Source: an uncultured Gammaproteobacteria bacterium
Lineage (GTDB): Bacteria > Patescibacteriota > Patescibacteriia > Magasanikbacterales > GWA2-37-8
Assembly: GCA_964356495.1 (NCBI GenBank)
Contig: CAYHHR010000004.1
Coordinates: forward strand, 153-43,678
Direction: 5' to 3'
Length of the DNA: 43,526 nucleotides
This document shows, in pieces, positions 1,157 through 43,526 of the stretch. The translations under genes and the position numbers were made by a program. Position 1 is the stretch's first letter. Each line of letters begins with the position of its first letter. The notes beneath the pieces are model-generated. The model had not been told where the DNA came from, ran no database searches, and saw nothing but the letters and a program-made list of their open reading frames with translations.

Positions 1157-4100
1157 ATGACAGAAAAACGAAAAATGAATCACGCGCAGAATGAAGCTGT
1201 CAAATATACTGACGGCCCGCTTCTGATTGTCGCTGGCGCCGGGACCGGTAAGACGACCGTTATCGCCAATAAAATCGGTTACTTGCTGGAGAATGACCTC
1301 GCGAAACCGGAGGAAATTTTGGCCTTAACTTTCACCGACAAAGCGGCCGAAGAAATGCAAACGCGCGTCGATGAAATTATCGATACTGGTTATACCGATC
1401 TTCAGATCTCTACTTTTCATTCTTTTTGCCAGCGCATCCTCGAACACCACGCCATCGACATCGGACTAAGCAACCAATTTAAACTTCTAACGCCGACGGC
1501 GGCCTGGCTCCTGATGCAAAAACATTTTCGTTCTTTCAATCTTGATTACTACCGACCGCTCGGCAATCCTTACCGCCACATCCACGAACTCCTGAAACAT
1601 TTTTCTAAATGCAAAGACGAACTCATCTCGCCCGAAGATTATCTGTTTCTCGCCGAAGCAAAAGGCAAAGAAAAAGGTGACATGGTAATCGAGGAACAAA
1701 ATCGGCTGACTGAAATTTCCAACGCCTACCACGTCTACAATCAACTCCTTCGCGATAACGCCGCCCTTGATTTTGGCGATCTGATTTATTATACGCACGA
1801 GCTGTTCAGAAAACGGCCGAATGTTTTACAAATATTTCAACAACAATATAAATATATTTTGGTCGACGAATTTCAAGACGTAAATTGGGGACAGTACGCG
1901 CTCCTGAGGCAGCTGGTGATTGGGGGCAAAGGACGGCAAACCCCACCTAACCTCCCCTTGGAAAGGGGAGGGAGCCAACCACAACTAACCGTGGTCGGCG
2001 ATGACGACCAAAGTATTTACGCTTTCCGCGGCGCCAGTGTCTCGAATATCCTTCACTTCAAAGATGATTTTCCAAAGGCAAAAGAGATCGTTTTGAACGA
2101 AAATTATCGCTCTGTTCAGCCAATTCTCGACCTTGCCTATCAGTCAATAAAAAACAATAATCCGGACCGGTTGGAAGTTAAACTCAATATAGACAAGAAA
2201 TTAATTAGCCAGCGATACCTCTCTCCAACTCTCTCCTTTGTGAAGGAGAGAGGGGACAAACCCTCGCCTCCACAGAGGAGAGGGCAGGGAGAGGTTGTTC
2301 ATATCAACGCGCCGACGCTTGATAATGAAGTCGAGGATGTGATAAATGAAATCGCCCGACTGAAAAAAATTGACCGGAAGGCCAGCTGGGATGATTTCGC
2401 GATCCTAGTCAGAGCCAACAATCACGCTGATCCTTTCATCGGCGCGCTTGAGCGGCACGGTCTGCCATACGAATTTTTGTCGTCCGCCGGATTGTTCCGA
2501 CAAAATATTGTTTTGGATTGTCTGGCATTCCTCCGAATTTTAAATAATTATCACATCGATGCCGCCTGGTATAGATTATTATGCCTGCCTTTTTTAAATT
2601 TCAAAGAAAGCGATCTGCAAAAACTAACTCATTTCGCGAAACAAAAATCAATTCCTTATTATGCCGCCTTGAAACGCGGCCGTGAACTCGATTTATCCGA
2701 AGGAGGACTAAAGACGTGCGACACGCTCATCGCGCTGGCGCATGAGGAGATGCAAAAAACACGGACCGACAAGCCATCCGCCCTGCTCGTGGCATTTCTT
2801 GAAAAAATCGGCTATCTGAAATTTTTGGTCGACGAAGAAAAATCCGGCAATCGCGAGTCAAACCGGCGAACTCATCACCTGACGCAATTTTTTGAATTTT
2901 TAAACGAATTCGAAACAACTTCCCCCGATCATCGATTAGTAAATTTCCTCGAGCATTTCGAACTTCTCTCCGAAGCGGGGGAGAAGGGAAGCATGAGCCA
3001 GCCCTCCGACACGCCGGACTCGATCAATATTATGACAATCCACGGTTCCAAAGGATTGGAATTCAAATACGTCTTCGTGGTCAATCTGGTCGAGGATCGT
3101 TTCCCGAGCCGACGCCGTGGCGAGGCGATCGAAATTCCAGTTGAGTTGGTAAAAGAAAAACTTCCCGAGGGCGATAGTCATATCGAGGAAGAACGGCGTT
3201 TATTCTATGTCGCGGTGACCAGAGCGAAAGATCGCCTCTACCTTACGAGCGCCAACGACTACGGCGGCGAACGCGCGAAGAAAATCAGCCGTTTTTTGAA
3301 TGAGCTCGGCTACCACGCTTCCGATGAAGAAAAAAAGAAATTCGAACTTAAAACCACCGAGAAAATTCCTGAAAAAAAGGGTGAGTTTATTTTTGATCTG
3401 CCAAAGTCATTTTCATTTTCGCAAATCCGCTCTTATGATACCTGTCCGTACAAATACAAACTTTCCTCGATTTTAAAAATCCCAACCAAAGGCTCTGGCG
3501 TTCTTAGTTTCGGCTCCTCTATTCACAATACGTTGCTTCATTTTTATTCCAAAGTGAAAGAGCTGAACGAAGTCCAACAAGTGTCATTGTTCGACAAACC
3601 GTTGCCACAAAAAACTTCCTCAGATAAAATTAAGGTCCCGTCACTCGATGAACTGTTGGAAATGTATGAAAAGGATTGGATAGACGATTGGTATCGCGAT
3701 GAGCAACAGCGAGAATTATATTTTAAAAAAGGCAAAGAACTGCTGAAATTATTTTACTCGAAAAATGAAAACAACTGGAACATTCCGGCGGAAATTGAGA
3801 AATCATTCCGCATTAAAATCGGACCATACCTCGTGAAAGGGAGAATCGACCGCATCGACAAAAATAACGACGGCGGAATTGAGATTATTGACTACAAAAC
3901 CGGTAAAAGCAAGGATAAACTCACCGCCGAGGATAAGGAACAGCTACTGATATACCAAATTGTTTTTGAGCAGGTCAGAGAGCTGGGAGAACTCGGCAAA
4001 CCAAGTAAATTAACTTTTTATTATCTCGAAGACGACCTCAGGACTTCCTTCATCGGCGAACCAAAAGACCTGGAAAAATTACAAAAAAAACTGCTCGGAA

Positions 4101-4198
4101 CCATGGACAAAATTTACGAAAAGAATTTTACAGCGACGCCGAGCCAGTTCGCCTGCGGATTTTGCGACTTTAAGGAAATTTGCGAGTACCGTGTATGA
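1157..4198 (+). CDS. UvrD/PcrA-family SF1 helicase fused to a C-terminal PD-(D/E)XK nuclease with Fe-S-type cysteines
   Basis: AGAGTGKT, LTFTDKAA, VDEFQD, VGDDDQSIYAFRGA, NYRS, TIHGSKGLEF, EEERRLFYVAVTRA; C-terminal CPYKY, GRIDRID, IIDYKTG, CGFCDFKEIC. Start moved to ATG 1157, downstream of the promoter. Confidence 0.92.
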   Translation: MTEKRKMNHAQNEAVKYTDGPLLIVAGAGTGKTTVIANKIGYLLENDLAKPEEILALTFTDKAAEEMQTRVDEIIDTGYTDLQISTFHSFCQRILEHHAIDIGLSNQFKLLTPTAAWLLMQKHFRSFNLDYYRPLGNPYRHIHELLKHFSKCKDELISPEDYLFLAEAKGKEKGDMVIEEQNRLTEISNAYHVYNQLLRDNAALDFGDLIYYTHELFRKRPNVLQIFQQQYKYILVDEFQDVNWGQYALLRQLVIGGKGRQTPPNLPLERGGSQPQLTVVGDDDQSIYAFRGASVSNILHFKDDFPKAKEIVLNENYRSVQPILDLAYQSIKNNNPDRLEVKLNIDKKLISQRYLSPTLSFVKERGDKPSPPQRRGQGEVVHINAPTLDNEVEDVINEIARLKKIDRKASWDDFAILVRANNHADPFIGALERHGLPYEFLSSAGLFRQNIVLDCLAFLRILNNYHIDAAWYRLLCLPFLNFKESDLQKLTHFAKQKSIPYYAALKRGRELDLSEGGLKTCDTLIALAHEEMQKTRTDKPSALLVAFLEKIGYLKFLVDEEKSGNRESNRRTHHLTQFFEFLNEFETTSPDHRLVNFLEHFELLSEAGEKGSMSQPSDTPDSINIMTIHGSKGLEFKYVFVVNLVEDRFPSRRRGEAIEIPVELVKEKLPEGDSHIEEERRLFYVAVTRAKDRLYLTSANDYGGERAKKISRFLNELGYHASDEEKKKFELKTTEKIPEKKGEFIFDLPKSFSFSQIRSYDTCPYKYKLSSILKIPTKGSGVLSFGSSIHNTLLHFYSKVKELNEVQQVSLFDKPLPQKTSSDKIKVPSLDELLEMYEKDWIDDWYRDEQQRELYFKKGKELLKLFYSKNENNWNIPAEIEKSFRIKIGPYLVKGRIDRIDKNNDGGIEIIDYKTGKSKDKLTAEDKEQLLIYQIVFEQVRELGELGKPSKLTFYYLEDDLRTSFIGEPKDLEKLQKKLLGTMDKIYEKNFTATPSQFACGFCDFKEICEYRV
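1926..1975 (+). repeat. GC-rich palindromic element (family A) in frame in the helicase
   Basis: Stem CCTCCCCTT-gga-AAGGGGAGG; 49/50 identical to the reverse complement of 19198-19247. Confidence 0.92.
2217..2295. repeat. Double-hairpin palindromic element (family A) in frame in the helicase
   Basis: ACCTCTC...GAGAGGT termini and two internal hairpins; 2260-2295 is 35/36 identical to 42718-42753. Confidence 0.9.
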
Positions 4199-4488
4199 TG
4201 AATTTATTTGGCGACATCCTGAAAAATAGAAACTTAAACTCGCCTCTGGTGCGTGGCGTTCGAGCGTCGCAAATCATCGAGGCGGCGGAGAAAATCCTGA
4301 TCAGCCGATTCGGCGAGGGGATTAAAACCGCTGCCGCCCCCGCGTATTTCAAAAACCAAACCTTGACGATCGCTTGTCTCAGTTCCACTGCCGCCGGCGA
4401 GATCAAGCTCTATGAAAACTCAATTATTGAGGAAATTAATAAAGAGGTGCCCGGCGACCAGGTAACAAAAATTCGATATCTTTCATAG
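4195..4488 (+). CDS. DUF721 / DciA-like protein
   Basis: About 97 aa with the TLTIACLSSTAAGEIKL...IIEEIN...VTKIRY pattern; ATGA overlap with the helicase stop. Confidence 0.65.
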   Translation: MMNLFGDILKNRNLNSPLVRGVRASQIIEAAEKILISRFGEGIKTAAAPAYFKNQTLTIACLSSTAAGEIKLYENSIIEEINKEVPGDQVTKIRYLS

Positions 4489-4490
4489 CC

Positions 4491-4519
4491 TTGCAAACTT
4501 AATAATAATCAGCTAACAT
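4491..4519 (+). promoter_or_regulatory. Sigma70-type promoter for the mre operon
   Basis: TTGCAA-17 nt-TAACAT, 10 nt before ATG 4530. Confidence 0.55.
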
Positions 4520-4529
4520 AGCCAAACAT

Positions 4530-4928
4530 ATGTCCCTACGCTCATATCTTTTCTTAATGTCTATCGCCAGCCTGCTTTCCTGGGCGGTTTGGTTTTTTGT
4601 GGTATTTAGCATCTCGCCGCGTAACGATAATTTCATCGGGCTAATTTCTTTTTATCTAAGCCTATTTATGGCAATCGTCGGAACATACTCCGTGTGCGGT
4701 TTTCTGATCCGGCGTCTTGTCATGAAAAATGACGGCGTCGTTTTCCGGCATGTCAGGCGCACTTTCCGACAGGGTATCCTCCTCGGCCTCGCCGTCATAC
4801 TTATTCTTTTATTACTTGCCCAAGGTCTGCTGTTTTGGTGGAACGCGATCATACTGGTTGTCTTTTTCATTTTTGTCGAACTGATAATTTTTAGTAATTA
4901 CAAGCACAGTAACAGCAACTATGTCTAG
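4530..4928 (+). CDS. Small four-TM membrane protein, unknown function
   Basis: Four hydrophobic segments; overlaps the mreB start. Confidence 0.75.
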   Translation: MSLRSYLFLMSIASLLSWAVWFFVVFSISPRNDNFIGLISFYLSLFMAIVGTYSVCGFLIRRLVMKNDGVVFRHVRRTFRQGILLGLAVILILLLLAQGLLFWWNAIILVVFFIFVELIIFSNYKHSNSNYV

Positions 4929-5973
4929 TTTTTTCCGGAAATTCAGAAAAGAAATCGGAATTGATCTTGGAACCGCCAACACTCTAGTCTACGTAAAAGG
5001 CCGGGGAGTGATAATCAATGAACCGAGCGTAGTCGCGGTAAACACCAAGACCGAGCAAATTCTGGCAGTCGGACACGAAGCGAAGGATATGCTTGGCAAG
5101 ACGCCGCCGCATATCGTGACTACTCGACCGCTCACTCACGGTATTATTTCTGATTTTGAGGTTACTGAAAAAATGCTGCGATATTTTGTTGACAAAGTTT
5201 ATGAAGACAGCTCGCTAAATTTTTTATCACGGCCAAGGATCGTCATCGGCGCGCCGGTAGACATCACCGAGGTTGAACGCCGCGCGATCGGAGACGCTGT
5301 AATGAACAGCGGCTCCCACGAGGTTTGGATCGTCGAAGAATCAATGGCTTCCGCGATCGGCTCCAGAATGCCGGTCCGAGAACCGATCGGAAATTTAATC
5401 GTGGAAATGGGCGGCGGCACCTGCGAAATCGCGGTAATCTCGCTCAGCGGCATCACGACCAGGAAATCAATTAAAATCGCCGGCGATGAATTAAACAGAA
5501 ACATCGTCCAGTACGCCCGCGATGTCTTCAACCTCCTGCTAGGCGAGCGGCAGGCCGAAGAAATCAAAATTAAGGTCGGCTCGGCTATCGATCTGTCCGA
5601 ACCGCTTCAATTTCCGATGCGCGGGCGCGACCTCCTGACCGGATTGCCTCGCGAGGTCATGATCAATGACACGCAAGTTCGAGAGGCAATAATCAAGTCC
5701 CTTCGCGTAATTGTAGACAGCATCAAAGATATTATTGAGATTACGCCGCCAGAGTTAGTCGCCGATATCCACGAACGCGGGATATTGCTCTCTGGCGGCG
5801 GCGCGCTCCTGCGCGGCTTTGACCAGCTCATCCATCGCGCTATCGAAATACCGGTGCGCATCGCTGACGACCCCTTGACTTCAGTCGTGCGCGGACTTGG
5901 CATGTTGCTTGATGATGATAATTTGCTTCGCGATGTGGCGGTTTTCCCTACTATCCCCAGACCCTCAAAATAA
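4921..5973 (+). CDS. mreB: Rod shape-determining protein MreB
   Basis: IGIDLGTANT, NEPSVVA, GGGALLRG actin-like motifs; followed by mreC/mreD/PBP2. Confidence 0.96.
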   Translation: MSSFFRKFRKEIGIDLGTANTLVYVKGRGVIINEPSVVAVNTKTEQILAVGHEAKDMLGKTPPHIVTTRPLTHGIISDFEVTEKMLRYFVDKVYEDSSLNFLSRPRIVIGAPVDITEVERRAIGDAVMNSGSHEVWIVEESMASAIGSRMPVREPIGNLIVEMGGGTCEIAVISLSGITTRKSIKIAGDELNRNIVQYARDVFNLLLGERQAEEIKIKVGSAIDLSEPLQFPMRGRDLLTGLPREVMINDTQVREAIIKSLRVIVDSIKDIIEITPPELVADIHERGILLSGGGALLRGFDQLIHRAIEIPVRIADDPLTSVVRGLGMLLDDDNLLRDVAVFPTIPRPSK

Positions 5974-5997
5974 TGGCCGGGCGCCAGGGTATAAATT

Positions 5998-7333: not shown

Positions 7334-9313
7334 ATGCCGATCAATCCATTTAAGATAGAAAAGGGGCTAACCAGCGGCGGCAACCTCAGGGGAAAATATA
7401 AAACTACCTGGGTGGAAGAATCATTTGATTCGGAAGAGGAAACGCCGGACGGATTATCAATTTCTCATACAAAAAAATACATCGGAACCGGCGTCGACGC
7501 AAAAAAAATCTGGTTTTCTCTGTTTGTCATCGGCCTCGGAATTTTTTTAATTTTTCTCAGAGTATTCCAGCTGGAAATCATCAAGGGCGACTACTACAGT
7601 TCACTGGCGGACGGCAACAGGATTCGCTTACTGCCGATTTTGGCCAATCGGGGAATTATCTACGATCGATTCAACCGCGACCTGATCAAAAACATCCCGA
7701 ATTTTTCTTTGGCAATCGTACCGCAGGATTTCCCGCGTAACGCGGCCGAGCGCGAGCAAATTCTTAACCAACTCTCACGTCTGGCCGGAATTAATCCTGT
7801 TGATGTCGAATCATTGTTAAAAAAATTCGGTCCTTACAGTTATGAGTCCATTACCATAAAAGATCACCTAGACTACGATACCGCTTTGAAACTTTATGTT
7901 AAGAACGACACCCTGCCGGGAGTAATCGTGGAAGGCGGAACCAAACGCGGTTATTATTTCAAAACTAATACCTCCTCGGAGCCGCTCCTGGTGCCAAGCC
8001 TCTCTCACCTGATCGGCTATGTTGGTAAATTGAACGACAGTGAACTCCAAGCCAATCGACCACTAGGTTATTTGGTGTCCGATCTCGTAGGCAAAACCGG
8101 CCTGGAAAAAAATTATGAATCCGACCTGCGCGGCGTCTATGGCAGAAAGAAAATTGAGGTCAACGCGTTCGGCAAGGAACAAAATGTGCTCGCGATGGAG
8201 CCGCCAACACCGGGGAAAAATCTAATCATGTCGCTTGACCTCGACGCTCAAAAGGTAATGGAACGGTTGGTCAAGGAAACCGCCGACAAAACCGGCAATC
8301 ACCGCGTCTCCGCGTTTGCCATGAACCCGGAAAATGGTGAAATCCTCGCGATGGTGAGCTGGCCGACCTATGATAATAATGAGTTTATAAACGGCATCAA
8401 CCAAAAAAAATATTCAGCGTATTTGGATAATCCGGACAATCCGCTTTTTAATCGCGTAATCAGCGGTCTATACCCGCCCGGATCAACCGTCAAATTGATT
8501 GTCGCGGCGGCCGCGCTCGAGGAAGACATCATCACGAAAAATACCAGTATCAACAGCGTCGGTGGCATCGACGTCGGCGGGACATTTTATAAAGACTGGA
8601 AAGCCGGAGGGCACGGTATTACCAATGTCGCGAAAGCGCTTGCCTGGTCGGTAAATAGCTTTTTCTACTATGTGGGCGGCGGGTATAAAAATTTCATCGG
8701 TCTCGGAATTGATCGCCTTGATAAATATTTTTCAATATTCGGACTTGGTCAAAAAACCGCCATCGATATTCCGGGTGAGAGCGCCGGGTTTATTCCGAGC
8801 AAGGATTGGAAATTGAAAGCCAAGGGCGAATCGTGGTATGTCGGCGACACCTACAATGTTTCGATCGGTCAGGGAGACCTCCTTGTGACCCCTCTGCAGG
8901 TCGGCGTTTGGACGGCGGCGGTCGCGAACGGCGGCTATCTAGTCACGCCGCATTTGATACAGAAAATAGTTGACCCGGTGACAAAAAAAGTTACCGACCT
9001 GAATTTTCCGAAAAAGCATATCGATGATATTTCAAACCGTAATTTAGAAACTGTCCGCCAAGGAATGCGCGATTGCGTCACGCTTGGCAGCTGCAAGCAG
9101 CTCGGGGCCTTATCCTTCCAAGCGGCCGGAAAAACCGGCACCGCCCAATGGAGCAAAACTCACCCGACACATGCCTGGTTTACCTCGTTTGCTCCTTATC
9201 AAAATCCCAAAATCGTGGTGACCGTGCTTATCGAGGAAGGCGGGGAAGGGTCGGCCGTCGCTGAACCGATTGCGGAGAAATTTCTTGACTGGTGGGGTAA
9301 AAAATATTTGTAA
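7334..9313 (+). CDS. mrdA: Penicillin-binding protein 2
   Basis: RGIIYDR, GKTGLE, YPPGSTVK (SxxK), SVN, KTGTAQ motifs. Confidence 0.94.
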   Translation: MPINPFKIEKGLTSGGNLRGKYKTTWVEESFDSEEETPDGLSISHTKKYIGTGVDAKKIWFSLFVIGLGIFLIFLRVFQLEIIKGDYYSSLADGNRIRLLPILANRGIIYDRFNRDLIKNIPNFSLAIVPQDFPRNAAEREQILNQLSRLAGINPVDVESLLKKFGPYSYESITIKDHLDYDTALKLYVKNDTLPGVIVEGGTKRGYYFKTNTSSEPLLVPSLSHLIGYVGKLNDSELQANRPLGYLVSDLVGKTGLEKNYESDLRGVYGRKKIEVNAFGKEQNVLAMEPPTPGKNLIMSLDLDAQKVMERLVKETADKTGNHRVSAFAMNPENGEILAMVSWPTYDNNEFINGINQKKYSAYLDNPDNPLFNRVISGLYPPGSTVKLIVAAAALEEDIITKNTSINSVGGIDVGGTFYKDWKAGGHGITNVAKALAWSVNSFFYYVGGGYKNFIGLGIDRLDKYFSIFGLGQKTAIDIPGESAGFIPSKDWKLKAKGESWYVGDTYNVSIGQGDLLVTPLQVGVWTAAVANGGYLVTPHLIQKIVDPVTKKVTDLNFPKKHIDDISNRNLETVRQGMRDCVTLGSCKQLGALSFQAAGKTGTAQWSKTHPTHAWFTSFAPYQNPKIVVTVLIEEGGEGSAVAEPIAEKFLDWWGKKYL

Positions 9314-15720: not shown

Positions 15721-16661
15721 AACTTGGACTCCCCTATTTTGACGATTTTATACTTAATCTAAGGGCCAATAATTTTTCTGATGAGACTGCGTATAATTAC
15801 GAGCGCGATCTTCAAACTTTTGAAAATTTTCTAATTCACGACATAAAAAAAAACTTTTACGAAATTGATAAAACCGATTTACTCAGATACAAAGCATACC
15901 TGTCATCTGTTGATAGAAAAACAGCCAAATCAGCCAAATCCGAAAAAAAACTAAGCAGCTATTCTACGAATCGTATGCTTTCTACGTTGCGCTCCTATCT
16001 AAAATTTATGGAGGATATGGATCATACGCCGCCAATTTCTTCTACAGCAGTTAAGCTAGTCAAAAACATAAAGAAACATGGTCAGGTGCCTGAATTTGAG
16101 GTAATAATAAATGTTATTGAGGCGCCGATGAAATTTGAGGACAATATTAAAATCGCTCTACGTAATCGCGCGATGCTTGAAACCTTGTTTGCAACCGGAA
16201 TGCGCATTTCCGAGCTGCTATCATTAAAGGTAGTACAAATCGACAAAACGGGACGAATTTATGTGTTGGGTAAGGGAAAAAAACAACGATTCGTATATTT
16301 AACTCCTCGAGCGCTCACCCACCTAAAAAATTATCTTGCAAAACGTGCGAGCACATCCGAAATGCTATTTGTTCCCTATAGCGGGCTAAATAATCAAGAA
16401 AAAAATAAAAAATTATCGGCCAACTATTTACAATACAAAATAAAACAATACCGGGAGTTGCTTGGTATAATCACACCTATTAGCGCCCACACTCTACGTC
16501 ACGGATTTGCAACTTATCTAGCTGAGAATGGAGCAAACCCGGCTGCCATTCAGGTATTGCTCGGGCATGAATCACTAGATACTACAACCAGATATGTTCA
16601 TGCGTCAGATAGGTATGCAGAAAAAACCCACCATGATTTTCATCCACTATTCGACGAATAA
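15717..16661 (+). CDS. XerC/XerD-like tyrosine recombinase
   Basis: TGMRISEL, GKGKKQR, HTLRHGFAT, LLGHESLDTTTRY (full R-K-H-R-H-Y set); ATGA overlap with the HNH gene. Confidence 0.93.
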   Translation: MKLGLPYFDDFILNLRANNFSDETAYNYERDLQTFENFLIHDIKKNFYEIDKTDLLRYKAYLSSVDRKTAKSAKSEKKLSSYSTNRMLSTLRSYLKFMEDMDHTPPISSTAVKLVKNIKKHGQVPEFEVIINVIEAPMKFEDNIKIALRNRAMLETLFATGMRISELLSLKVVQIDKTGRIYVLGKGKKQRFVYLTPRALTHLKNYLAKRASTSEMLFVPYSGLNNQEKNKKLSANYLQYKIKQYRELLGIITPISAHTLRHGFATYLAENGANPAAIQVLLGHESLDTTTRYVHASDRYAEKTHHDFHPLFDE

Positions 16662-17969: not shown

Positions 17970-19478
17970 CTAGAGCTTCCCGAGCGCAATTTCTATTCTT
18001 CTGATCGACTCATCTTTTCCAATCGCCTCCGCGATTTCAAATGGCCCCGGGGAATTCGGTTGTCCGGAAAGCGCCACGCGCCAGGGCCAGAGCACACTGC
18101 CGTTTGAATAGCCGTTTTTCACCACCCACTCCCCTACCGATTTCTCCAGATCAGATTTATTCCAATTATTTTCTTTGACGTCGGACAAAAATTTATGAAC
18201 TTCCGGCAAAATTTTCCGCGCTTCTTCGATTGAACCTTTCTTCCAAACCAAAAGCTCCTTTTCATACCCCGGAAGCTTCAAGGCAAACGCCAGCGCCGCC
18301 GGCAATTCAGCAAGAGTGGTCACGCGTTCGCGTTCCAAAGAAATTATTTTTTCGAGCCGTTCTGAATTAACTCCTCCATTAAAATAATCTAAACTTCTGC
18401 CGGCCAATTCAGCGTCAGACAACTTTTTTATATATTCCTTATTAAACCAATTTAATTTATCAACATTAAACACCGCTCCAGTTTTGTTTACTTTTGAGAG
18501 ATTGAATTCCTTAACCAACTCATCCAACGAAAAAATTTCCCGCTCATCGCCAGGATTCCAACCAAGAAAGGCGACGAAATTCACCAGGGCCTCCGGTAAA
18601 TAGCCATTCTTTTGGTAATCAGCTACCGCGACGTCACCTTGCCGTTTACTTAACTTCGATTTATCGGCGTTAAGCAAAAGCGGCAAATGCGCAAACTCGG
18701 GCGCGTTCCAACCAAAACATTTATATAGTTGTATATGCTTTGGCGTACTGCTGATCCACTCGTCGCCACGAATTACGTGCGTGATTTCCATCAGATGATC
18801 ATCGACGACTACCGCCAGATGATAGGTTGGAAATCCGTCCGACTTCATCAAAACCTGATCATCTACCAAAGCATTTTTTATTTTTACCTCGCCATGGATT
18901 AAATCCTTGAAAATCGTCTCACCTTCTTTTGGCATTTTCAGACGTACCACATGATTCTCCCCGGCCACGATTTTCTTTTTTGCTTCATCGCTGCTGACAG
19001 TTTTCAAACATTGCTGATCATAACCCGTAGGCTGTTTATTTTGTTGCTGAGTTTCACGAAGTTTTTGCAAACGATCAGGCGTACAGAAACAATAATACGC
19101 ACTCCCCTTCTCCAGAAGTTCTTCGGCAAATTTTTTATAGATATCTAGACGTTCTGACTGAACATACGGCCCCTTTTCACCATTCTGAACAATCTTCGCT
19201 CCCTCCCCTTTCCAAGGGGAGGCTAGGTGGGGTTTGCCGTCCTTTGCGACCTCGCCACTCAACATAACACCCCCATCCGGCACAATACCAGCCCAATAAA
19301 GAGACTTCAAAATATTTTCAGTTCCGTCCGCCACGAACCGCTCCCGATCGGTATCCTCGATACGCAACAAAAATTTTCCGCCCTGATTTTTCGCGAATAA
19401 ATACGAATACAAAGCGGTACGAAGACCGCCGACATGAAGATAACCGGTTGGGCTGGGAGCAAAACGGGTGCGGATCAC
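17970..19478 (-). CDS. gltX: Glutamyl-tRNA synthetase
   Basis: IRTRFAPSPTGYLHVG, RIEDTD, KLSKR; likely GTG start 19478 in a GTGA overlap with the upstream stop. Confidence 0.96.
   Translation of the reverse strand: MIRTRFAPSPTGYLHVGGLRTALYSYLFAKNQGGKFLLRIEDTDRERFVADGTENILKSLYWAGIVPDGGVMLSGEVAKDGKPHLASPWKGEGAKIVQNGEKGPYVQSERLDIYKKFAEELLEKGSAYYCFCTPDRLQKLRETQQQNKQPTGYDQQCLKTVSSDEAKKKIVAGENHVVRLKMPKEGETIFKDLIHGEVKIKNALVDDQVLMKSDGFPTYHLAVVVDDHLMEITHVIRGDEWISSTPKHIQLYKCFGWNAPEFAHLPLLLNADKSKLSKRQGDVAVADYQKNGYLPEALVNFVAFLGWNPGDEREIFSLDELVKEFNLSKVNKTGAVFNVDKLNWFNKEYIKKLSDAELAGRSLDYFNGGVNSERLEKIISLERERVTTLAELPAALAFALKLPGYEKELLVWKKGSIEEARKILPEVHKFLSDVKENNWNKSDLEKSVGEWVVKNGYSNGSVLWPWRVALSGQPNSPGPFEIAEAIGKDESIRRIEIALGKL
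19198..19247 (-). repeat. Family A palindromic element in frame in gltX
   Basis: 49/50 identical to 1926-1975; encodes AKDGKPHLASPWKGEGA. Confidence 0.92.
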
Positions 19479-20269
19479 ACTTTTTCTTTTAAAATTAAAT
19501 AAGAAAATTTCAGCGTCGCGTTGAGAATTCTGCCGAAACGCCTCGGCTGTTTCCACAAACGATACAGCCATTCTAAACCAATTTGACGCATAAGTCTAGG
19601 AGCGCGCCGAATAAATTCGGACAAATAATCAAACGCGCCGCCTACCCCCATGCCGATTTTTACGCTCGGCATTTTTACTAAATTTTCGGCCAGCCACTTC
19701 TCCTGTTTCCCCATGCCGAACGCCACAAACAAAATATCAGGCTTTGTTTCATTAATTTTTTTAATTGAAAATTGATCATTGGAATTTGATTGGAAATTGG
19801 AAATTGGAAATTGGAAATTTTCGTCAATAGTAGGCCCTTTGTCATACCCAGCAATTTTTAATCCAGGAAATTTTTTTAATAAATTTTCACTCGCCATTTT
19901 GACGACCTCATCGCTCAGGCTCCCCAATAAATAGATTGAATACTTTTTTTGTTCAGCGAGTTTGCACAGATCAACCATAAAATCAACTCCGGTGATTCGG
20001 TCCAACCCACCCCTACCCCGCCCAAGCGGGGAATTGTTTTTTCCAAAATACCGCCTGGCGAGCCATAGACCAAACCCATCGCAGAGATTCAGCGATCCCC
20101 TATTTAGAACTTCTCTAAAATACACATCTGTTTGCGCCATAACCAGCATTTCCGGGTTAGGTGTAAATATCAGGTGCTGACCGCTGGAAAAAATAAATGA
20201 TTCGGCTTTTTTGACAGCCTCACCCCCTGAAAAATCATCGATACGTATACCCAAAATAGTATTATTCAT
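19475..20269 (-). CDS. WecB/TagA/CpsF family glycosyltransferase
   Basis: TPNPE, RITGVD, PDILFVAFGMGKQE, GVGGAFD, GLEWLYRL..QPRR. Confidence 0.93.
   Translation of the reverse strand: MNNTILGIRIDDFSGGEAVKKAESFIFSSGQHLIFTPNPEMLVMAQTDVYFREVLNRGSLNLCDGFGLWLARRYFGKNNSPLGRGRGGLDRITGVDFMVDLCKLAEQKKYSIYLLGSLSDEVVKMASENLLKKFPGLKIAGYDKGPTIDENFQFPISNFQSNSNDQFSIKKINETKPDILFVAFGMGKQEKWLAENLVKMPSVKIGMGVGGAFDYLSEFIRRAPRLMRQIGLEWLYRLWKQPRRFGRILNATLKFSYLILKEKV
19763..19821. repeat. Heptamer tandem repeat (family B) in frame
   Basis: GGAAATT x4 perfect (19792-19819) plus degenerate units; encodes NFQFPISNFQSNSNDQFSI. Confidence 0.88.
20002..20036. repeat. Family A palindromic element in frame in the TagA-like gene
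   Basis: 35/35 identical to 42431-42465; hairpin CCCCGC-ccaa-GCGGGG; encodes NSPLGRGRGGL. Confidence 0.92.
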
Positions 20270-28471: not shown

Positions 28472-29389
28472 ATGCGCATAAAAATCGTTTTCTTCGGAAC
28501 GCATGACTTCGGCGCGGCAATGTTGAGCGCCCTGATTGAAAATAAAAATTATGACATCGTCTCCGTCATAACCCAGCCCGATCGGCCGGTTGGACGAGAA
28601 CATAAATTACAAAAATCTGCCGTGAAGATTCTCGCTGAGCAACACGGATTAGATATCTTTCAACCCGAATCGCTTAAAAATTGGACATTGGACATTGGGG
28701 TTTGGGATTTGGCGGTGGTCTGCCAATACGGCCTGATCATACCGAAAACGATTTTAGGACTGCCGAGGTTTGGTTTTATTAATATCCACACCTCCCTGCT
28801 GCCGAAATATCGCGGCGCTTCTCCGATCCAGACCGCAATTTTGAACGGAGAAACCGAGACTGGAGTTACGATTATGCTCATGGACGAAAGAATGGATCAT
28901 GGCAAAATTCTCTCGCAAGCAAAAATAAAAATTTTGCCCGATGATACCTATCTTGATCTGCAGGAAAAGATGGAGCCGGTCGCTCGCGAACTGCTTTTAA
29001 AAACCCTGCCCGAATATCTGGAGGGGAAAATAAAATCGGCAGCGCAAGATGAAAATCACGCGACGTTTTGTAAAATATTCACTCGTGACGACGGACGGAT
29101 CGACTGGAAAAAATCCGCGGCAGAGATTTACAATCAATACCGCGGCCTATCACCGTGGCCCGGAATTTGGACAATGTGGGGCGACAAAAGACTGAAGCTT
29201 CTTGAAATCAAAGTTTCCGATTTAAAAATTCCGTCTGGCGAAATAAAAATAAACGACAAAAAAATTTTTGTCGGTACAAAAAATGGCGCTGTCGAAATCT
29301 TATTGCTGCAGCTCGAAGGTAAAAAAGAACAAACAGCCGCCGATTTTATTTCCGGCTACTCGACATTTGACTCGGCGATCTTAACATAA
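28472..29389 (+). CDS. fmt: Methionyl-tRNA formyltransferase
   Basis: VITQPDRPVGR, NIHTSLLPKYRGASPIQ, MDHG. Confidence 0.96.
   Translation: MRIKIVFFGTHDFGAAMLSALIENKNYDIVSVITQPDRPVGREHKLQKSAVKILAEQHGLDIFQPESLKNWTLDIGVWDLAVVCQYGLIIPKTILGLPRFGFINIHTSLLPKYRGASPIQTAILNGETETGVTIMLMDERMDHGKILSQAKIKILPDDTYLDLQEKMEPVARELLLKTLPEYLEGKIKSAAQDENHATFCKIFTRDDGRIDWKKSAAEIYNQYRGLSPWPGIWTMWGDKRLKLLEIKVSDLKIPSGEIKINDKKIFVGTKNGAVEILLLQLEGKKEQTAADFISGYSTFDSAILT
28676..28711. repeat. Heptamer tandem repeat (family B) in frame in fmt
   Basis: AAAAATT GGACATT GGACATT GGGGTTT GGGATTT; encodes KNWTLDIGVWDL. Confidence 0.7.
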
Positions 29390-38760: not shown

Positions 38761-38769
38761 ATTATAAAA

Positions 38770-39156: not shown

Positions 39157-39167
39157 ACTCTTTTTTT

Positions 39168-39196
39168 GAAAATTGAAAAATTAAAAATTGAAAATT
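39168..39196. repeat. Heptamer-like repeat (family B), intergenic
   Basis: GAAAATT GAAAAATT AAAAATT GAAAATT between rpmJ and rpsM. Confidence 0.6.
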
Positions 39197-39202
39197 CTCT
39201 CA

Positions 39203-39316: not shown

Positions 39317-39325
39317 ATATAAATT

Positions 39326-39405
39326 GATTACACAGATAAGCCATAGGCTTCGCAGATTACGCAGATTAATTGACAGTATCTGCGGCGCGAAAGCGCATCT
39401 GCGTT
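39326..39405. repeat. CGCAGAT/ATCTGCG inverted-repeat element (family C)
   Basis: CACAGAT, CGCAGATTACGCAGATT, then ATCTGCG x2, with nested AAGCC-ata-GGCTT and GCGC-gaaa-GCGC hairpins. Confidence 0.75.
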
Positions 39406-39507
39406 ATTCAATAAAAAATATATCAACCACTGCCGCGATATCGTCGCTCAATCTTTCATCGAGCTCCACCGCACCGGCTGATACAAATTCTATTTATGGA
39501 TGATTTT

Positions 39508-39723
39508 TTAATACCGTAAAGTAATTCTACCTTTGGTCAGATCGTATGGAGTCATCTCTACTTTTACTCTGTCTCCAATCGATAACCGAATTTTGTTCAA
39601 ACGCATCTTACCTGACAAATGAGCGATGATGCTCTGACCGCTTTCCAGGGTTACCCGGAAGGTGGCGGCCGGCAACAGGTCTTCGACCTGGCCATCAAGT
39701 TCGATGATGTCGTTTTTAGCCAT
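39508..39723 (-). CDS. infA: Translation initiation factor IF-1
   Basis: [26 protein letters not shown]. Confidence 0.98.
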
Positions 39724-39748
39724 TTAGAATTTTACTTAACTGGGCGAT

Positions 39749-39777
39749 AGTATAGCCCAAGATGAATTAATAGTCAA
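39749..39777 (-). promoter_or_regulatory. Sigma70-type promoter for the infA-rpmJ-alpha operon
   Basis: TTGACT-17 nt-TATACT. Confidence 0.8.
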
Positions 39778-39821
39778 GTACCCCATATTAGGACACCTGA
39801 ATAAATTTAAATTTTGCCTTA

Positions 39822-39920
39822 AAATCTAGCTTCTAAATCCTAAATCCCAATTTCCAAATCCCAAACAAATTACAAATCACAAACGTGATTGGAAATTGGA
39901 ATTTGTGATTTGGGATTTTT
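39822..39920. repeat. Inverted pair of heptamer arrays (family B) overlapping the GtrA 3' end
   Basis: AAATCCT AAATCCC AATTTCC AAATCCC ... facing GGAAATT GGAATTT GTGATTT GGGATTT. Confidence 0.85.
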
Positions 39921-40323
39921 CAATCCGGTACACCCAATACTTATAAAGAAGGAAGTTCCAGGCCACCGACAGAGCGATATTCAGCGTACGCGCGTATAGA
40001 TAGTAAACACCAAAACGGTCATGAAGTAAATAGATCCAAACTACTGAAAATAAGTAGTTAAATACTGCTAAAATAAGGAACTTGATCATCTGCCGATGAG
40101 TTACCCCCACGGCTTTGAACGACCAATGCTTGTTTAGAAGGAAAACTCCGGTCACGATTACCGGCTGATTTATAACCACGGCAAGCGTTGGCGAAAAATG
40201 CAGATACTCTTTCAAGAAATACAAACTGCCGATATCAGCAAGAAACGCGCTTATACCAATAATAAAATATTTTGTAAATTCTTTACGCATTGACCAAAAA
40301 TGAAGAATTACGCTCCTTAACAT
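39877..40323 (-). CDS. GtrA-family membrane protein
   Basis: FTKYFIIG, FLLNKHWSF, WNFLLYKYWVY; four TMs. Confidence 0.85.
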   Translation of the reverse strand: MLRSVILHFWSMRKEFTKYFIIGISAFLADIGSLYFLKEYLHFSPTLAVVINQPVIVTGVFLLNKHWSFKAVGVTHRQMIKFLILAVFNYLFSVVWIYLLHDRFGVYYLYARTLNIALSVAWNFLLYKYWVYRIEKSQITNSNFQSRL

Positions 40324-40325
40324 AG

Positions 40326-42257
40326 TTATTCTAGGATGGCTTTAATACGGCGAACACCGGCGCCAACCGCTTCTTCCTTGATAATTTTAAATTTACCGAG
40401 CAGGCCGGTATGCTCGACGTGGGGGCCGCCACAAACCTCGCGGCTAAACGTCGGAGATGTCGGATCTGCTACCGCAGGACGCTCAGCGTCCCCAACCGTG
40501 TAAACCTTAACTTTGTCCTGATACTTATTCTCGAAGAGCCCGATCGCGCCTTTTGCTTTCGCGTCCTTAAAACTCATTTCTTCGCAAATCACGCGGTAAT
40601 CATTATCGATAGCGTCATTGACCAAATCCTGAACCTTTGCTAATTCCTCAGCCGTCATTTTCTGCGGATGACTAAAATCAAAACGCATGCGTTCCGTCGT
40701 GATGTTGCTCCCCTTCTGATTCGCGTGCGATCCAAGCACATTGTGAAGCGCGGCGTGCAATAGGTGCGTGGCAGTATGATATTTAGTGGACATCTCACTA
40801 TGATCCGCCATACCTCCGGCAAATTTCTGTTCAGCGCCGGCGCGAGATGTCTCCTGATGCTGTTTAAACGCTTCCTCAAATCCGGCCACATCCACCGAGA
40901 GACTGTTCTCGAGCGCGAGTTCCTGCGTCATTTCAAGTGGAAATCCGTAAGTATCATAAAGTTTGAAGGCATGCCTCCCGGAAATTTCTTTGATAACAAA
41001 TCCAGTCTTTTCGAACGAAGTTCGGAAACCGCCGATGAGGCGGTCAAATTCCTTGAGGCCCTGTTCAACAGTATTTCTAAATTTACTTTCCTCACCTTCA
41101 ATCTCAGTCAACACAAAATCCTGATTCCTTTTTAACTCCGGATAAACCCCACCCCCTGCCCCTGCCCCTCCCCTATTAGGGGAGGGATTGAGGGAGGGGT
41201 CGGAAAATATTTTAATTACTTTCTTCGCGACCTCGCCCGCAAAATTTTCCTTGATGCCAAGTTGTCGGCCATAACGCACGGCGCGTCGGATTAATCGGCG
41301 AACCAAATATCCCTGATCGGTATTTGATGGACCAATCCCGCGATCGTCGCCAATGATCATCGTCGCGGTACGGATATGGTCAGCGATAATTCGCATCGAA
41401 CGAGTTACATTTCCACCCTCTATATATTCATGTCCGGAAAGATCCTGAATCGTCTGTATAAGCGGCCAAAAAGTATCAATTTGAAAAACATCGGCAAAAC
41501 CATTTAAAACCATCAGCGTGCGCTCAAGACCCATGCCGGTATCAACATTTTTTTGTTTTAACGGTTCATAAACATATTGGTCATTGGAATTTGGGATTTG
41601 TGATTTCACTTTATTGTACTGCATGAAGACGTCATTCCAAATCTCCAACCAATTATCCTCGTCATTGCCTGGATTACTACCAGCTGGCGGAAGTTCGGTC
41701 TTCCCTGCCCAATAAAACATCTCCGTGTCAGGCCCGCACGGACCGGTCTGACCAGCCGGCCCCCACCAATTATTTTTTCTTGGTAAATAGGCAATTCGTT
41801 CCTCTGGCAAGCCGAGCGACATCCAAATTTCAGCCGCTTCATCATCACGCGGAATGTTAATTTCTTTTTCCCCGGCAAAAACCGAGACTGCCAATTTGCG
41901 TTTATCTAAATTTAAATTTGCCGGCGAAGTCAAAAATTCCCAACTCCATTTGATCGCGTCTTCCTTGAAATAATCGCCCAGCGACCAGTTTCCCATCATT
42001 TCAAAAAAGGTGTCATGGCGATTGTCGCCGACTTCATCGATATCCTGAGTGCGAATGCATTTTTGGACACTAGCCAGGCGCTTGCCGCCCGGATGTTTTG
42101 CCCCTAGCAGATACGGCACGAGCGGATGCATGCCGGCGGTGGTAAATAATACCGTCGGATCGTTCTCCGGAATAACCGAAGCAGAAGGGATAATGGTATG
42201 TTCCTTTGATCTGAAAAATTCGAGATATTTTTTCCGAAGTTCCTCTGAAGTTAGCAT
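40326..42257 (-). CDS. alaS: Alanyl-tRNA synthetase (short form without C-Ala domain)
   Basis: DPTVLFTTAGM, TFFEMMGNWS, DTGMGLER, HTATHLL, CGGPH, GVRRIKA. Confidence 0.96.
   Translation of the reverse strand: MLTSEELRKKYLEFFRSKEHTIIPSASVIPENDPTVLFTTAGMHPLVPYLLGAKHPGGKRLASVQKCIRTQDIDEVGDNRHDTFFEMMGNWSLGDYFKEDAIKWSWEFLTSPANLNLDKRKLAVSVFAGEKEINIPRDDEAAEIWMSLGLPEERIAYLPRKNNWWGPAGQTGPCGPDTEMFYWAGKTELPPAGSNPGNDEDNWLEIWNDVFMQYNKVKSQIPNSNDQYVYEPLKQKNVDTGMGLERTLMVLNGFADVFQIDTFWPLIQTIQDLSGHEYIEGGNVTRSMRIIADHIRTATMIIGDDRGIGPSNTDQGYLVRRLIRRAVRYGRQLGIKENFAGEVAKKVIKIFSDPSLNPSPNRGGAGAGGGVYPELKRNQDFVLTEIEGEESKFRNTVEQGLKEFDRLIGGFRTSFEKTGFVIKEISGRHAFKLYDTYGFPLEMTQELALENSLSVDVAGFEEAFKQHQETSRAGAEQKFAGGMADHSEMSTKYHTATHLLHAALHNVLGSHANQKGSNITTERMRFDFSHPQKMTAEELAKVQDLVNDAIDNDYRVICEEMSFKDAKAKGAIGLFENKYQDKVKVYTVGDAERPAVADPTSPTFSREVCGGPHVEHTGLLGKFKIIKEEAVGAGVRRIKAILE
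41146..41200. repeat. Family A palindromic element in frame in alaS
   Basis: ACCCC...GGGGT termini, stem CCCTCCCCT-att-AGGGGAGGG; encodes DPSLNPSPNRGGAGAGGGV. Confidence 0.88.
41577..41606. repeat. Heptamer repeat (family B) in frame in alaS
   Basis: GGTCATT GGAATTT GGGATTT GTGATTT; encodes KSQIPNSNDQ. Confidence 0.8.
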
Positions 42258-42261
42258 AAAT

Positions 42262-42332
42262 TATTTTCTAGCGCAGTGAGAGAAATGAATTTATTCATTT
42301 CTGAACCAGCGACGAAAATATGGGCGAAGCCC
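42262..42332. repeat. Nested hairpins in the mnmA-alaS spacer
   Basis: AGAAATGAAT-tt-ATTCATTTCT inside TATTTTC...GAAAATA, plus GGGC-gaa-GCCC. Confidence 0.65.
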
Positions 42333-43526
42333 CTATTTTATCGCTCCGCCACCCAAACATTCACCTTTTTTGTAGAATACGGCGAACTGTCCTGGTGTCA
42401 CGGCGCGTTGGGGAGTTGCAAATTTTACGACCAACCCACCCCTACCCCGCCCAAGCGGGGAATTGCTGACAGTACACTTCTGAAGCGGTTGCCGGTGACG
42501 CAATCGTACTTCACATTTTAATGGAAATTTCGGCGTTTGTCCAGAAATCCAATTTACGTTTTCCACTTCACATTCCTTTTTGTAAAGCAACGGATCATCC
42601 TCAAAACCAACAATCAACTCGTTGGTTTTTTGATTTTTGGCAACTATGAAATACGGACGAGTGTCGACGTGAGACCTCTCTTCTCGTTCTCTCCTCTGCG
42701 GAGGCGAGAAAGAATCGACCCTCGCCTCCGCAGAGGAGAGGGCAGGGAGAGGTCTGGCCACACCAATTCGTTCACCAATTGTATAAAAAGATAGCCCCTC
42801 GTGAGTGCCGATAATTGCGCCGTTAAATAAAATATCTCCCGGTTTTGGCGGAATACGCTTCTGAAGGAACTCCTTCATCGGAACTTCACCGATAAAACAA
42901 ATTCCCATACTCTCTTCTTTGTCGGCAGTCGGCAAATTAAACTTCTCCGCCAGCTTCCTTACCTCCGGTTTGGTATAACTTCCGACTGGAAACATGCTAT
43001 ACGCTAATTGTTTTTGATTTAGCTGATGCAAAAAATATGTTTGATCTTTATTGGCGTCCTTGGCTTCTAATAATTTGATTGGAAATTGGAAATTGAAAAT
43101 TGGAAATTCCCGCCCAAGGCGGGCATAGTGTCCGGTCGCCAAAAAATCAAACCCCAGTTCCTTCGCTTTATCGAGCCAGCTGCCAAATTTTATAAATGAA
43201 TTGCACATCACATCCGGATTCGGCGTTCTCCCCTTTTCATATTCAGCGTACATATACGCGAGAACTTTTTCCGAATATTCTTTTTTGAAATCTAATTTCA
43301 AAACTGGAATCCCAAGTTTGGCGGCGACCCTGACCGCGTCTCGATAATCCGACAACCAACAATCACTCCCACTCCCTCTGTGTTCTCCCTCTCTGGCAGA
43401 GGGAGATATTGTCCCCCTCTTACCAAGAGGGGGCTCGGGGGGAGTTGCCGGAGTCTCATCATAATTTATCATAAACGCGCCGGTGACATCATACTTTCCC
43501 GACGCAACCAAAAGAGCGGCGGCGAC
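42333..43526 (-). CDS. mnmA: tRNA 2-thiouridylase MnmA (5' end outside the window)
   Basis: GRTPNPDVMCN, ATGHYAR, KDQTYFL, ESMGICFIG, TPGQFAVFY; frame open to the window end. Confidence 0.96.
   Translation of the reverse strand, partial: VAAALLVASGKYDVTGAFMINYDETPATPPEPPLGKRGTISPSAREGEHRGSGSDCWLSDYRDAVRVAAKLGIPVLKLDFKKEYSEKVLAYMYAEYEKGRTPNPDVMCNSFIKFGSWLDKAKELGFDFLATGHYARLGREFPIFNFQFPIKLLEAKDANKDQTYFLHQLNQKQLAYSMFPVGSYTKPEVRKLAEKFNLPTADKEESMGICFIGEVPMKEFLQKRIPPKPGDILFNGAIIGTHEGLSFYTIGERIGVARPLPALSSAEARVDSFSPPQRREREERSHVDTRPYFIVAKNQKTNELIVGFEDDPLLYKKECEVENVNWISGQTPKFPLKCEVRLRHRQPLQKCTVSNSPLGRGRGGLVVKFATPQRAVTPGQFAVFYKKGECLGGGAIK
42431..42465. repeat. Family A element in frame in mnmA
   Basis: Identical to 20002-20036. 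Confidence 0.92.
42672..42755. repeat. Family A double-hairpin element in frame in mnmA
   Basis: AGACCTCTC...GAGAGGTCT termini; right half 35/36 identical to 2260-2295. Confidence 0.9.
43079..43123. repeat. Heptamer repeat (family B) plus a small hairpin in frame in mnmA
   Basis: GGAAATT GGAAATT GAAAATT GGAAATT then CCCGCC-caa-GGCGGG; encodes RLGREFPIFNFQFP. Confidence 0.82.
43365..43445. repeat. Family A double-hairpin element in frame in mnmA
   Basis: ACTCCC...GGGAGT termini; stems TCTCCCTCT-ctggc-AGAGGGAGA and CCCCCTCTT-acc-AAGAGGGGG. Confidence 0.88.

Follow-up and report, generated by a model that had tools for sequence, protein, structure and literature searches.

Several families of short, GC-rich hairpin elements lie inserted in frame in housekeeping genes of a compact bacterial genome; the same repeats bracket small genes of the DUF559 nuclease family, the enzymes and their repeats vary together, the two co-occur across genomes, and whole repeat-DUF559-repeat modules are present or absent between related genomes. 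The elements came to light in a stretch of 43,526 nucleotides (nt), referred to here as the window, which is C4:153-43678 (contig CAYHHR010000004.1) of an 850-kb genome, denoted G000, that is assembled in 44 contigs with a GC content of 46% and an estimated completeness of 96%. Public sequencing runs that hold the window sequence are labelled, where a label is given, as groundwater metagenome.

The first-pass annotation of the window had listed eight GC-rich palindromic elements within five genes. All eight lie where it placed them, translation of the five host open reading frames (ORFs) showed each to be read in frame, and Pfam matches bear out the names given to the hosts. The gene for a UvrD-like helicase with a C-terminal PD-(D/E)XK nuclease domain (1100-4198, + strand; PF00580, PF13361 and PF12705, that is UvrD/PDDEXK_1) carries a family A singlet at 1926-1975 (+), made of a pyrimidine leader and a CCTCCCCTT/AAGGGGAGG hairpin and read as GKGRQTPPNLPLERGGS, and a family B inverted doublet at 2217-2295, in which terminal inverted repeats ACCTCTC...GAGAGGT surround two hairpins (fold z -4.7). 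A second family A singlet, at 19198-19247 (-), lies in frame in the glutamyl-tRNA synthetase gene gltX (17970-19571, -; PF00749, PF19269), where it is read as AKDGKPHLASPWKGEGA; its orientation to the gene is that of the helicase copy and its phase is different. The gene for a WecG/TagA/CpsF-family glycosyltransferase (19475-20269, -; PF03808) holds a family C singlet at 20002-20036 (+) with a CCCCGC/GCGGGG hairpin, read as NSPLGRGRGGL, and the alanyl-tRNA synthetase gene alaS (40326-42257, -; PF01411, PF07973) holds a D-like element at 41146-41200 (-) with a CCCTCCCCTA/TAGGGGAGGG hairpin and C-rich/G-rich termini. The most heavily loaded host is mnmA, encoding tRNA 2-thiouridylase and truncated at the window end (42333-43526, -; PF03054, PF20258, PF20259), with three GC-rich elements and one AT-rich repeat: a family C singlet at 42431-42465 (+), a family B inverted doublet at 42672-42755 and, close to the N-terminus, a family E inverted doublet at 43365-43445, all in frame. 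The three doublets have no assigned strand.

A common plan of leader plus hairpin, occurring as singlets or inverted doublets, holds across the window elements as had been described. The proposal that they form a single family does not stand, since there are at least five sequence families (A at 1926 and 19198, B at 2217 and 42672, C at 20002 and 42431, E at 43365, and the D-like element at 41146) that have their architecture in common and not their sequences. Within families the near-identities reported between unrelated genes were recovered: 1926-1975 and 19198-19247 match at 98% over 50 nt (49/50) as reverse complements, 20002-20036 and 42431-42465 are the same sequence (35/35), and between 42672-42755 and the right-hand half of 2217-2295 the identity is 97.2% over 36 nt (35/36). 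The coordinates given for the elements are correct and the sizes derived from them need adjustment, the true inserts being multiples of three, for example 51 nt and not 50 for family A.

We aligned the host genes with orthologues from three genomes of the same genus, G001, G002 and G003. Such alignments had been proposed as a check, and empty sites were found for all eight elements, with net gains in G000 of 15-81 nt, every one a multiple of three. In G003 the helicase orthologue lacks both elements: the singlet corresponds to a gap of 51 nt, or 17 amino acids (aa), and the doublet to a net gain in G000 of 42 nt (14 aa). For gltX the gap is 51 nt in both G001 and G003; for the TagA-like gene it is 30 nt in G001 at the DNA level and 10 aa in G001 and G003 in the protein alignment. 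In the DNA alignment of alaS, 51 nt are cleanly inserted relative to both G002 and G001. In mnmA the family C copy accounts for a net gain of 15 nt relative to G002 and G001, the family E doublet for 72 nt relative to G002, G001 and G003, and the family B doublet, which G002 also has, faces an 81-nt gap in G001. Among ten further sites on C2 and C7 with both flanks placed, nine have a net gain in G000 of approximately 18-90 nt relative to at least one of G001 and G003; the tenth, C2:12541, gains only 6 nt relative to G003, lies in a short ORF and is uncertain. Family A gives +51 nt at four of five sites overall and +42/+33 at the fifth, and family C gives +15, +27 and +30, which means that the elements either insert imprecisely or are trimmed afterwards. 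Ancient conserved peptide loops were rejected as an explanation, since orthologues in the same genus are without them. The public runs had no contig joint at an element boundary that would mark an empty allele, a result of little weight as contigs and not reads were searched.

The copies are also far more alike than the genes around them. A 19.4-kb query from the window gave 118 matches in G002, mostly copies of families A, B and C at 90-100% identity, while G001 gave four and G003 13, all of them syntenic; host genes of G000 and G002 are approximately 72-81% identical. Around the mnmA family B doublet, G000 and G002 have an identical run of 170 nt (42770-42601), comprising the 84-nt element and 86 nt of flank, in a context of 81% overall identity where the next-longest run is 37 nt. 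Read most simply, this run would be the trace of recent recombination by which the element passed from one lineage to another. Empty sites at eight of eight positions, near-identical copies beside diverged hosts, and insertion in several orientations and phases bear out the earlier suggestion of recent insertion into genes: these are recent, lineage-specific insertions at the DNA level, made after the split from the same-genus relatives.

As single-stranded DNA the eight elements fold into hairpins (z -1.9 to -7.9 relative to shuffles), the singlets as one hairpin and the doublets either as a terminal stem bearing two hairpins or as one long hairpin. No Rfam family reached the gathering threshold in the window, and ten DUF559 loci gave nothing beyond sub-threshold hairpin noise; a known RNA family was rejected on this ground. 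An AlphaFold2 (AF2) model of MnmA, of only moderate quality, built on an 11-row alignment and with a mean predicted local distance difference test (pLDDT) score of 61.6, places the inserts in low-confidence coil, as it does segment 193-211. In other genera the same MnmA loops carry GC-rich inserts of their own, which marks these loops as tolerant hot spots. An assembly artefact was also rejected: public contigs of two studies bridge the alaS element (X1 record 1 and X2 record 11) and the N-terminal mnmA element (X2 record 16 and X6 record 32), so these two are independently established, and public contigs enter others from unique flanks. Several public contigs terminate within the repeats.

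Throughout G000 the elements are numerous. Perfect GC-rich pyrimidine/purine hairpins with an arm of 8 and a loop of 3-6 nt occur 120 times, against 0-3 times in three shuffles of the genome, and self-comparison sorted 269 repeat intervals into more than 12 families. A simple ORF caller gave 869 ORFs, 91% coding, with 619 ORFs of at least 150 aa. It errs both ways, losing the true TagA ORF and placing short spurious ORFs over intergenic copies, as at two intergenic family B doublets that flank rpmH-rnpA-yidD; we call a unit deep in an ORF when it lies at least 30 codons from either end of an ORF of at least 150 aa, a criterion that leaves the short spurious ORFs out. Of the 120 hairpins, 45 are deep in long ORFs, another 24 fall at other places within ORFs and 51 have no ORF around them. 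Iterated nhmmer searches counted 57 units of family A, 49 of B, 26 of C and 30 of E, of which 20, 41, 18 and 21, respectively, are deep in ORFs. The D seed matched itself only. The D-like family is mostly intergenic, with one of its 32 self-comparison intervals deep in an ORF. Altogether 51 of the 619 longer ORFs are hosts, 18 of them to two or more families. The first-pass annotation had seen no intergenic copy, which holds for GC-rich copies within the window and fails genome-wide, where 27 of 57 family A units and most D-like units are intergenic and many family A doublets stand between gene ends.

Two units that lie between ORFs in the same frame were suspected of having broken a gene, and both suspicions were rejected because the neighbours are separate genes, pheS and pheT in one case, PFOR-beta and flavodoxin in the other; for the remaining non-ORF units gene breakage was judged by neighbour lists only. 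The first of the two (C28:4642-4673, L187) occupies a spacer of approximately 55 nt between the pheS stop, which abuts the element end, and the apparent pheT ATG, and the second (C9:13591-13628, L188) lies within a 48-nt spacer. Beyond G000, summed metagenome depth over family C is approximately 100 times that of its flanks, so the communities sampled contain this repeat in large numbers.

Each family occurs in both orientations to its host genes and in two or three phases, so that one DNA sequence gives rise to unrelated peptides. Family C, for instance, is read as ANPPLPRPSGEL, NSPLGRGRGGL, QPTPTPPKRG or PRLGGVGVGW depending on the frame. A module at the protein level was rejected on this evidence, identical DNA being translated in differing phases and orientations. 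Most frames of the consensus sequences are free of stop codons: four of six for A and for D-like elements, five of six for B, C and E, with two stop codons in each closed D-like frame. Where family A copies are read in the phase that contains TAA, they have CAA or TAC in its place. Net lengths in multiples of three and four to five open frames out of six imply that the inserts would be translated as additional Pro/Gly/Arg/Ser-rich coil in tolerated loops.

The second half of the finding concerns the genes that lie between these repeats. G000 has seven DUF559 genes (PF04480, 84-105 bits against a cut-off of 20.6), and all seven are bracketed by inverted units, in line with a suggestion in the first-pass annotation that similar hairpins flank DUF559/Vsr-like endonuclease genes. 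They are compact, encoding approximately 130-150 aa, and each stands between units of one family: two between family A units (at C2:8550/9000, where the gene is at 8631-9059, and at C18:14296/14761), one between family E units (C13:1915/2334), three between D-like units, with one of these genes at C18:10171-10569, and one, in tsaC, with whole family B doublets on both sides (C21:15885-15963 and 16399-16477). When adjacent same-family units 120-4000 nt apart were paired, five inverted pairs fell at spacings of 380-440 nt, four of which enclose DUF559 and the fifth ordinary protein sequence; with that pair excepted, DUF559 is the sole gene found between repeat ends. Residues D53, E64, D66, H70 and K78, putatively catalytic to judge from the fold, are among those invariant in all seven proteins, and of the solved structures the closest is 3HRL, an 'endonuclease-like protein' (E 4e-10). 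It had been supposed that the elements are mobilised by an enzyme encoded elsewhere; DUF559 genes are indeed present between the units, and their association with the repeats suggests that DUF559 is probably what moves them.

The enzymes and their flanks diverge together across genera. DUF559 proteins of G000 cluster by flank family, and over the 14 of 23 loci that could be placed by regular expression, two of which (L062 and L069) picked one and the same gene, protein identity and flank similarity rise together (Spearman 0.40; Mantel test, 3 of 2000 permutations). Other relatives have 16 DUF559 loci; 12 were located, and these have hairpin units in their flanks with inverted repeats at BLAST E values of 2e-16 to 0.04, weak for two, the other four not being placed by the script. 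Among these loci, G002 supplies the cognate of family C, the flanks in G015 and G030 are A-like, and those in G004 are D-like. Other mobilisers were sought in G000. There were no matches there to PF01797, the Y1 transposase family of the RAYTs, in a search that was positive in 6 of 14 control genomes, and TnpB (PF07282) was not found, DDE and serine transposase families lying outside the search; RAYT and TnpB were rejected as mobilisers accordingly. A single reverse transcriptase gene (RVT_1, C30:7299-8345, L050) has an in-frame family A unit of its own, and nothing beyond that insert links it to the repeats.

We next compared the abundance of repeats and enzymes between genomes, counting the hairpin motif CCCCTN{3,8}AGGGG in G000 and 30 relatives. 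Over these 31 genomes motif count and DUF559 count are correlated (Spearman 0.65; Fisher's exact test on 6, 1, 2 and 22 genomes, p = 2.5e-4), with the reservation that relatives are not independent samples and p-values therefore overstate the association; a control with the reversed pattern showed no correlation with DUF559 count. G000 itself has 92 motifs and seven DUF559 genes, followed by G002 with 78 and four, G030 with 35 and one, G004 with 31 and three, G015 with 25 and four, and G018 with 16 and one, while G001 and G003 have two motifs each and no DUF559 gene. A scan of one genome per species found at least 560 DUF559 relatives, and the nearest are mostly records labelled Patescibacteria or candidate-phyla lineages. 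Among the best 80 of these, 38 are titled as Patescibacteria lineages and 42 are others, whose labels include Nitrospira, cyanobacteria, Anaerolineae, Bacteroidales and 'uncultured Gammaproteobacteria'. Inverted repeats that score 30 bits or more flank 34 of the 80 (15 of the 38 Patescibacteria, 19 of the 42 others) and none of 75 control windows offset by 500 nt, and these repeats have a CCCCTCC...GGAGGGG hairpin theme in common.

Orthologous sites were also found in different states of occupation. At one site G002 has a module of approximately 620 nt (L053) where the G000 counterpart on C32 is an empty, AT-rich intergenic site. At another, G002 has unit-DUF559-unit-spacer-unit (L069) and G000 has unit-spacer-unit only (C21:12928-13052), which is the remnant to be expected from recombination between two direct units. 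The fullest series is in tsaC, the sole Sua5/YrdC gene of each genome, where a single position is empty in G001 and G003, holds a solo in-frame family B doublet in G002, and in G000 (C21:15540-16679, L046) holds doublet-DUF559-doublet within one open frame of 379 aa. G018 (L051/L183) has a DUF559 gene at the same position between other hairpins, in an ORF of 394 aa, so that this position shows recurrent occupation of the homing type together with empty alleles. Pfam finds only Sua5_yciO_yrdC and DUF559 in the fused ORF, with no intron or intein, and the other six DUF559 copies of G000 are free-standing between their repeats. G000 and G002 also differ at an intergenic site that lies downstream of a large gene orthologous between them: the G000 site (C1:32520-33688) holds a D-like DUF559 module and the G002 site (L067) a family A DUF559 module, which suggests that this site was used repeatedly or had its occupant replaced.

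From these observations we infer that the repeat-DUF559-repeat module is probably an autonomous unit, in which the nuclease starts copying or movement and from which solo doublets arise by deletion. The short elements would be non-autonomous relatives of this module, some of them left over when recombination between flanking direct repeats deletes the gene, in the manner of solo long terminal repeats (LTRs), and others copied in trans. The DUF559 nuclease would recognise its cognate hairpin and leader and make a nick or break, and host repair or replication would convert the break into a new copy. Homologous recombination could also pass element-bearing alleles from one related lineage to another, and this would account for the identical tract that G000 has in common with G002; selection would retain only copies that are 3n long, free of stops and situated in loops. 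More tentatively, as a reading on which our own confidence falls a little short of evenly divided, DUF559 nucleases and their cognate hairpins may together make up a widespread kind of compact mobile element in bacteria that has so far gone undescribed, a nuclease-driven counterpart of RAYT/REPIN, in Patescibacteria and in records labelled Nitrospira, cyanobacteria, Anaerolineae and others. Their miniatures would have evolved to be 3n long and stop-free, and so to colonise essential genes where intergenic space is scarce, steadily adding surface loops to core enzymes.

Several observations weigh against movement by DUF559. Family C, with 26 units, has no cognate DUF559 gene in the 96%-complete G000 assembly. 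Among the relatives G016 has 50 motifs and no DUF559 gene, G007 has two DUF559 genes and four motifs, and G024, with five motifs and one gene, is a further exception. Target duplications had been named as a feature to seek in the orthologue alignments, and none was seen: neither a target-site duplication nor a clear target motif is present at the clean alaS junction or around the 26 family C copies, divergence limiting the resolution at other sites. In G001, which has no full DUF559 gene, a uvrB-like ORF (L160) contains an in-frame palindrome of another family exactly opposite the family B doublet of G000 (C2:7671-7751); it is approximately 85-90 nt long with TGTCATYCTGAG...CTCAGRATGACA ends and corresponds to the G000 family 'comp10' (for example C5:29192-29282), so that repeats without a link to DUF559 can colonise genes in frame too. 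Lastly, PD-(D/E)XK nucleases hydrolyse DNA and strand transfer by them is not known, so a transposition-like step would need host functions.

Some of these points would be expected if the DUF559 genes were secondary, homing-type parasites of the hairpin doublets or of adjoining sites, with the short elements spread by host repair and replication or by another enzyme. This alternative, which we regard as unlikely, would explain why each DUF559 clade lies between its own repeats, and it accommodates both the abundance of family C without a cognate enzyme and the motif-rich G016. The plain doublet at C21:12928-13052, set against DUF559 beside the doublet in G002, can then be read as an insertion; DUF559 in tsaC of two genera between unlike hairpins resembles site-specific homing, and the occurrence of an A-type module in G002 and a D-like one in G000 at one intergenic site points the same way. 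If the repeats were targets of this kind, however, then most of them would be unoccupied, as seven DUF559 genes face more than 100 repeat units. DUF559 and hairpin counts moreover rise together over the relatives, the architecture recurs across phyla with a repeat always at both ends, searches for PF01797 and PF07282 offer no other transposase candidate, and the empty C32 site, a single case, suggests that a module was inserted at a site free of repeats. A different possibility is that the repeats are motifs that serve the host, as recombination or uptake signals, pause sites for transcription or translation, or intergenic terminators, and that DUF559 acts on them as a nuclease of repair or defence. 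The many intergenic family A doublets between gene ends are terminator-like, the 170-nt identical tract would be recombination around an element, and Caulobacter VsrA, the one characterised DUF559 protein in the literature consulted, is described as a Vsr-like repair nuclease (PMC12907096). We nevertheless hold a host function to be improbable, because the families fill G000 and G002 and are lacking from G001 and G003, the copies are nearly identical where their host genes have diverged, insertion is arbitrary in position, orientation and phase, and whole modules come and go between genomes, a combination typical of selfish spread and not of a conserved host function.

The remaining alternative concerns the products of the host genes and not the origin of the elements. 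Hairpins as strong as these make it conceivable that the inserts are cut out of the RNA or passed over by the ribosome, leaving the proteins unchanged, and translational bypass of inserts derived from GC clusters in yeast mitochondria is a precedent. If the inserts were skipped, then frame, 3n length and removal of stops would not be needed; yet all eight window copies and every unit deep in an ORF keep the frame and are stop-free, net gains are multiples of three, and copies in a stop-bearing phase carry a stop-removing substitution such as TAA to CAA in family A. Skipping accordingly appears very improbable, and plain translation of the inserts is the favoured reading of their frame conservation, stop avoidance and lengths.

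The hairpin repeats and their DUF559 genes can be set beside several known systems. The Rickettsia palindromic elements (RPEs), reportedly described by Ogata et al. in 2000, are likewise short palindromes of a reduced genome that interrupt housekeeping genes of unrelated kinds in frame, lengthen the proteins by peptide loops without destroying them, and have intergenic copies too. The elements of G000 differ from them in being 30-84 nt long (singlets approximately 30-51 nt, inverted doublets approximately 72-84 nt), GC-rich within a 46% GC genome and divided into several leader-plus-hairpin families, and in having a candidate cognate enzyme gene, DUF559, between the same repeats; to our knowledge no such gene is known for RPEs, and the relation is one of analogy and not of membership. 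Fungal mitochondrial GC clusters, double-hairpin elements and byp elements are also short, GC-rich, palindromic and mobile, and occupy coding regions of compact genomes; they differ in their organelle setting and their sequences, and some are bypassed by the ribosome, whereas here all the evidence points to plain translation. Repetitive extragenic palindromic (REP) sequences, their REPIN doublets and the REP-associated tyrosine transposases (RAYTs) offer hairpins that follow a short 5' leader and are found singly or as inverted doublets, and an enzyme gene flanked by its own repeat family (seven of seven for DUF559) and co-varying with it, few enzymes standing against many repeats. In place of a Y1 HUH transposase, however, the enzyme here is a PD-(D/E)XK Vsr-like nuclease; most of the elements lie within genes (families B, E and C, as counted above), and the DUF559 genes are multi-copy and patchy within the genus. 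Miniature inverted-repeat transposable elements (MITEs) resemble the family B and E doublets, which have paired terminal inverted repeats that the singlets lack; the doublets look like an internally deleted gene-bearing module, and doublet and full module occur at one orthologous site. Unlike MITEs, the G000 elements have no visible target-site duplication, and the putative parent module encodes a small nuclease and not a DDE, serine or Y1 transposase, DDE families not having been searched systematically.

The nearest enzymatic parallel is with Vsr-like homing endonucleases (EDxHD, I-Bth0305I). A review of PD-(D/E)XK nucleases places Vsr, DUF559, 3r3p and the homing endonuclease I-Bth0305I in one clade (PMC3424549). 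The likeness extends to a selfish and patchy gene, to the one tsaC site filled in two genera, and to the identical, co-conversion-like tract on a shared allele. DUF559 here differs in lying between hairpin repeats without an intron or intein host, in being fused in frame in tsaC, and in a dispersal to many unrelated sites that is not classic homing. In the DUF559 literature consulted, no title or abstract concerns repeats or mobility. A Thermosynechococcus paper mentions a DUF559/EDxHD gene among inteins, and a survey of programmed inversions records 'DUF559 domain-containing protein' as enriched (odds ratio 14.3) at predicted invertible loci flanked by inverted repeats (PMC9881135), which is consistent with the repeat-flanked architecture found here, a feature left undiscussed in that survey. 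The hairpin-DUF559 system is not described in the literature consulted on palindromic elements, in-frame insertion, Vsr-like homing and REPIN/RAYT, most subscription journals and supplements falling outside this scope, so that a prior description is possible.

Repeats of other kinds are present in the same DNA. An AT-rich repeat of the GATTGGAAATTGGAAATT type is read in frame, giving NFQFPI-like peptides, at 19751-19819 in the TagA-like gene, 41570-41606 in alaS and 43058-43108 in mnmA, and occurs also at 28667-28703 and 39868-39918 of the window. At the mnmA and TagA sites G001 either lacks this repeat or differs; its summed metagenome depth is very high, and in G000 nine of its 24 intervals lie deep in ORFs and nine are intergenic. 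AT-rich palindromes of approximately 85-95 nt ('comp6', 'comp7' and 'comp8', for example at window 39159-39199 and C2:19544-19628) are strictly intergenic or at gene ends, and at least one of these families, of the comp8 type, also occurs in G001 and G003, unlike the GC-rich families. At window 1-564, tandem repeats of approximately 129-144 nt that are 83-98% identical lie within an ORF and presumably belong to a repetitive protein.

If DUF559 does move these elements, the finding would give a concrete and testable function and substrate, action on cognate hairpin repeats, to a family of unknown function with at least 560 relatives. It would also show how selfish DNA can persist in an ultra-compact genome that is 91% coding, by taking up residence inside genes without breaking them, and the natural series from empty site through solo repeat to full module provides material with which the process can be studied. 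There are practical consequences as well. The repeats break assemblies, G002 being in approximately 180 contigs and public contigs ending inside repeats. Approximately 8% of the longer ORFs of G000 carry lineage-specific inserts of 10-28 aa that distort alignments, domain calls and structure predictions, and the annotation and phylogenomics of candidate-phyla genomes are affected by them.

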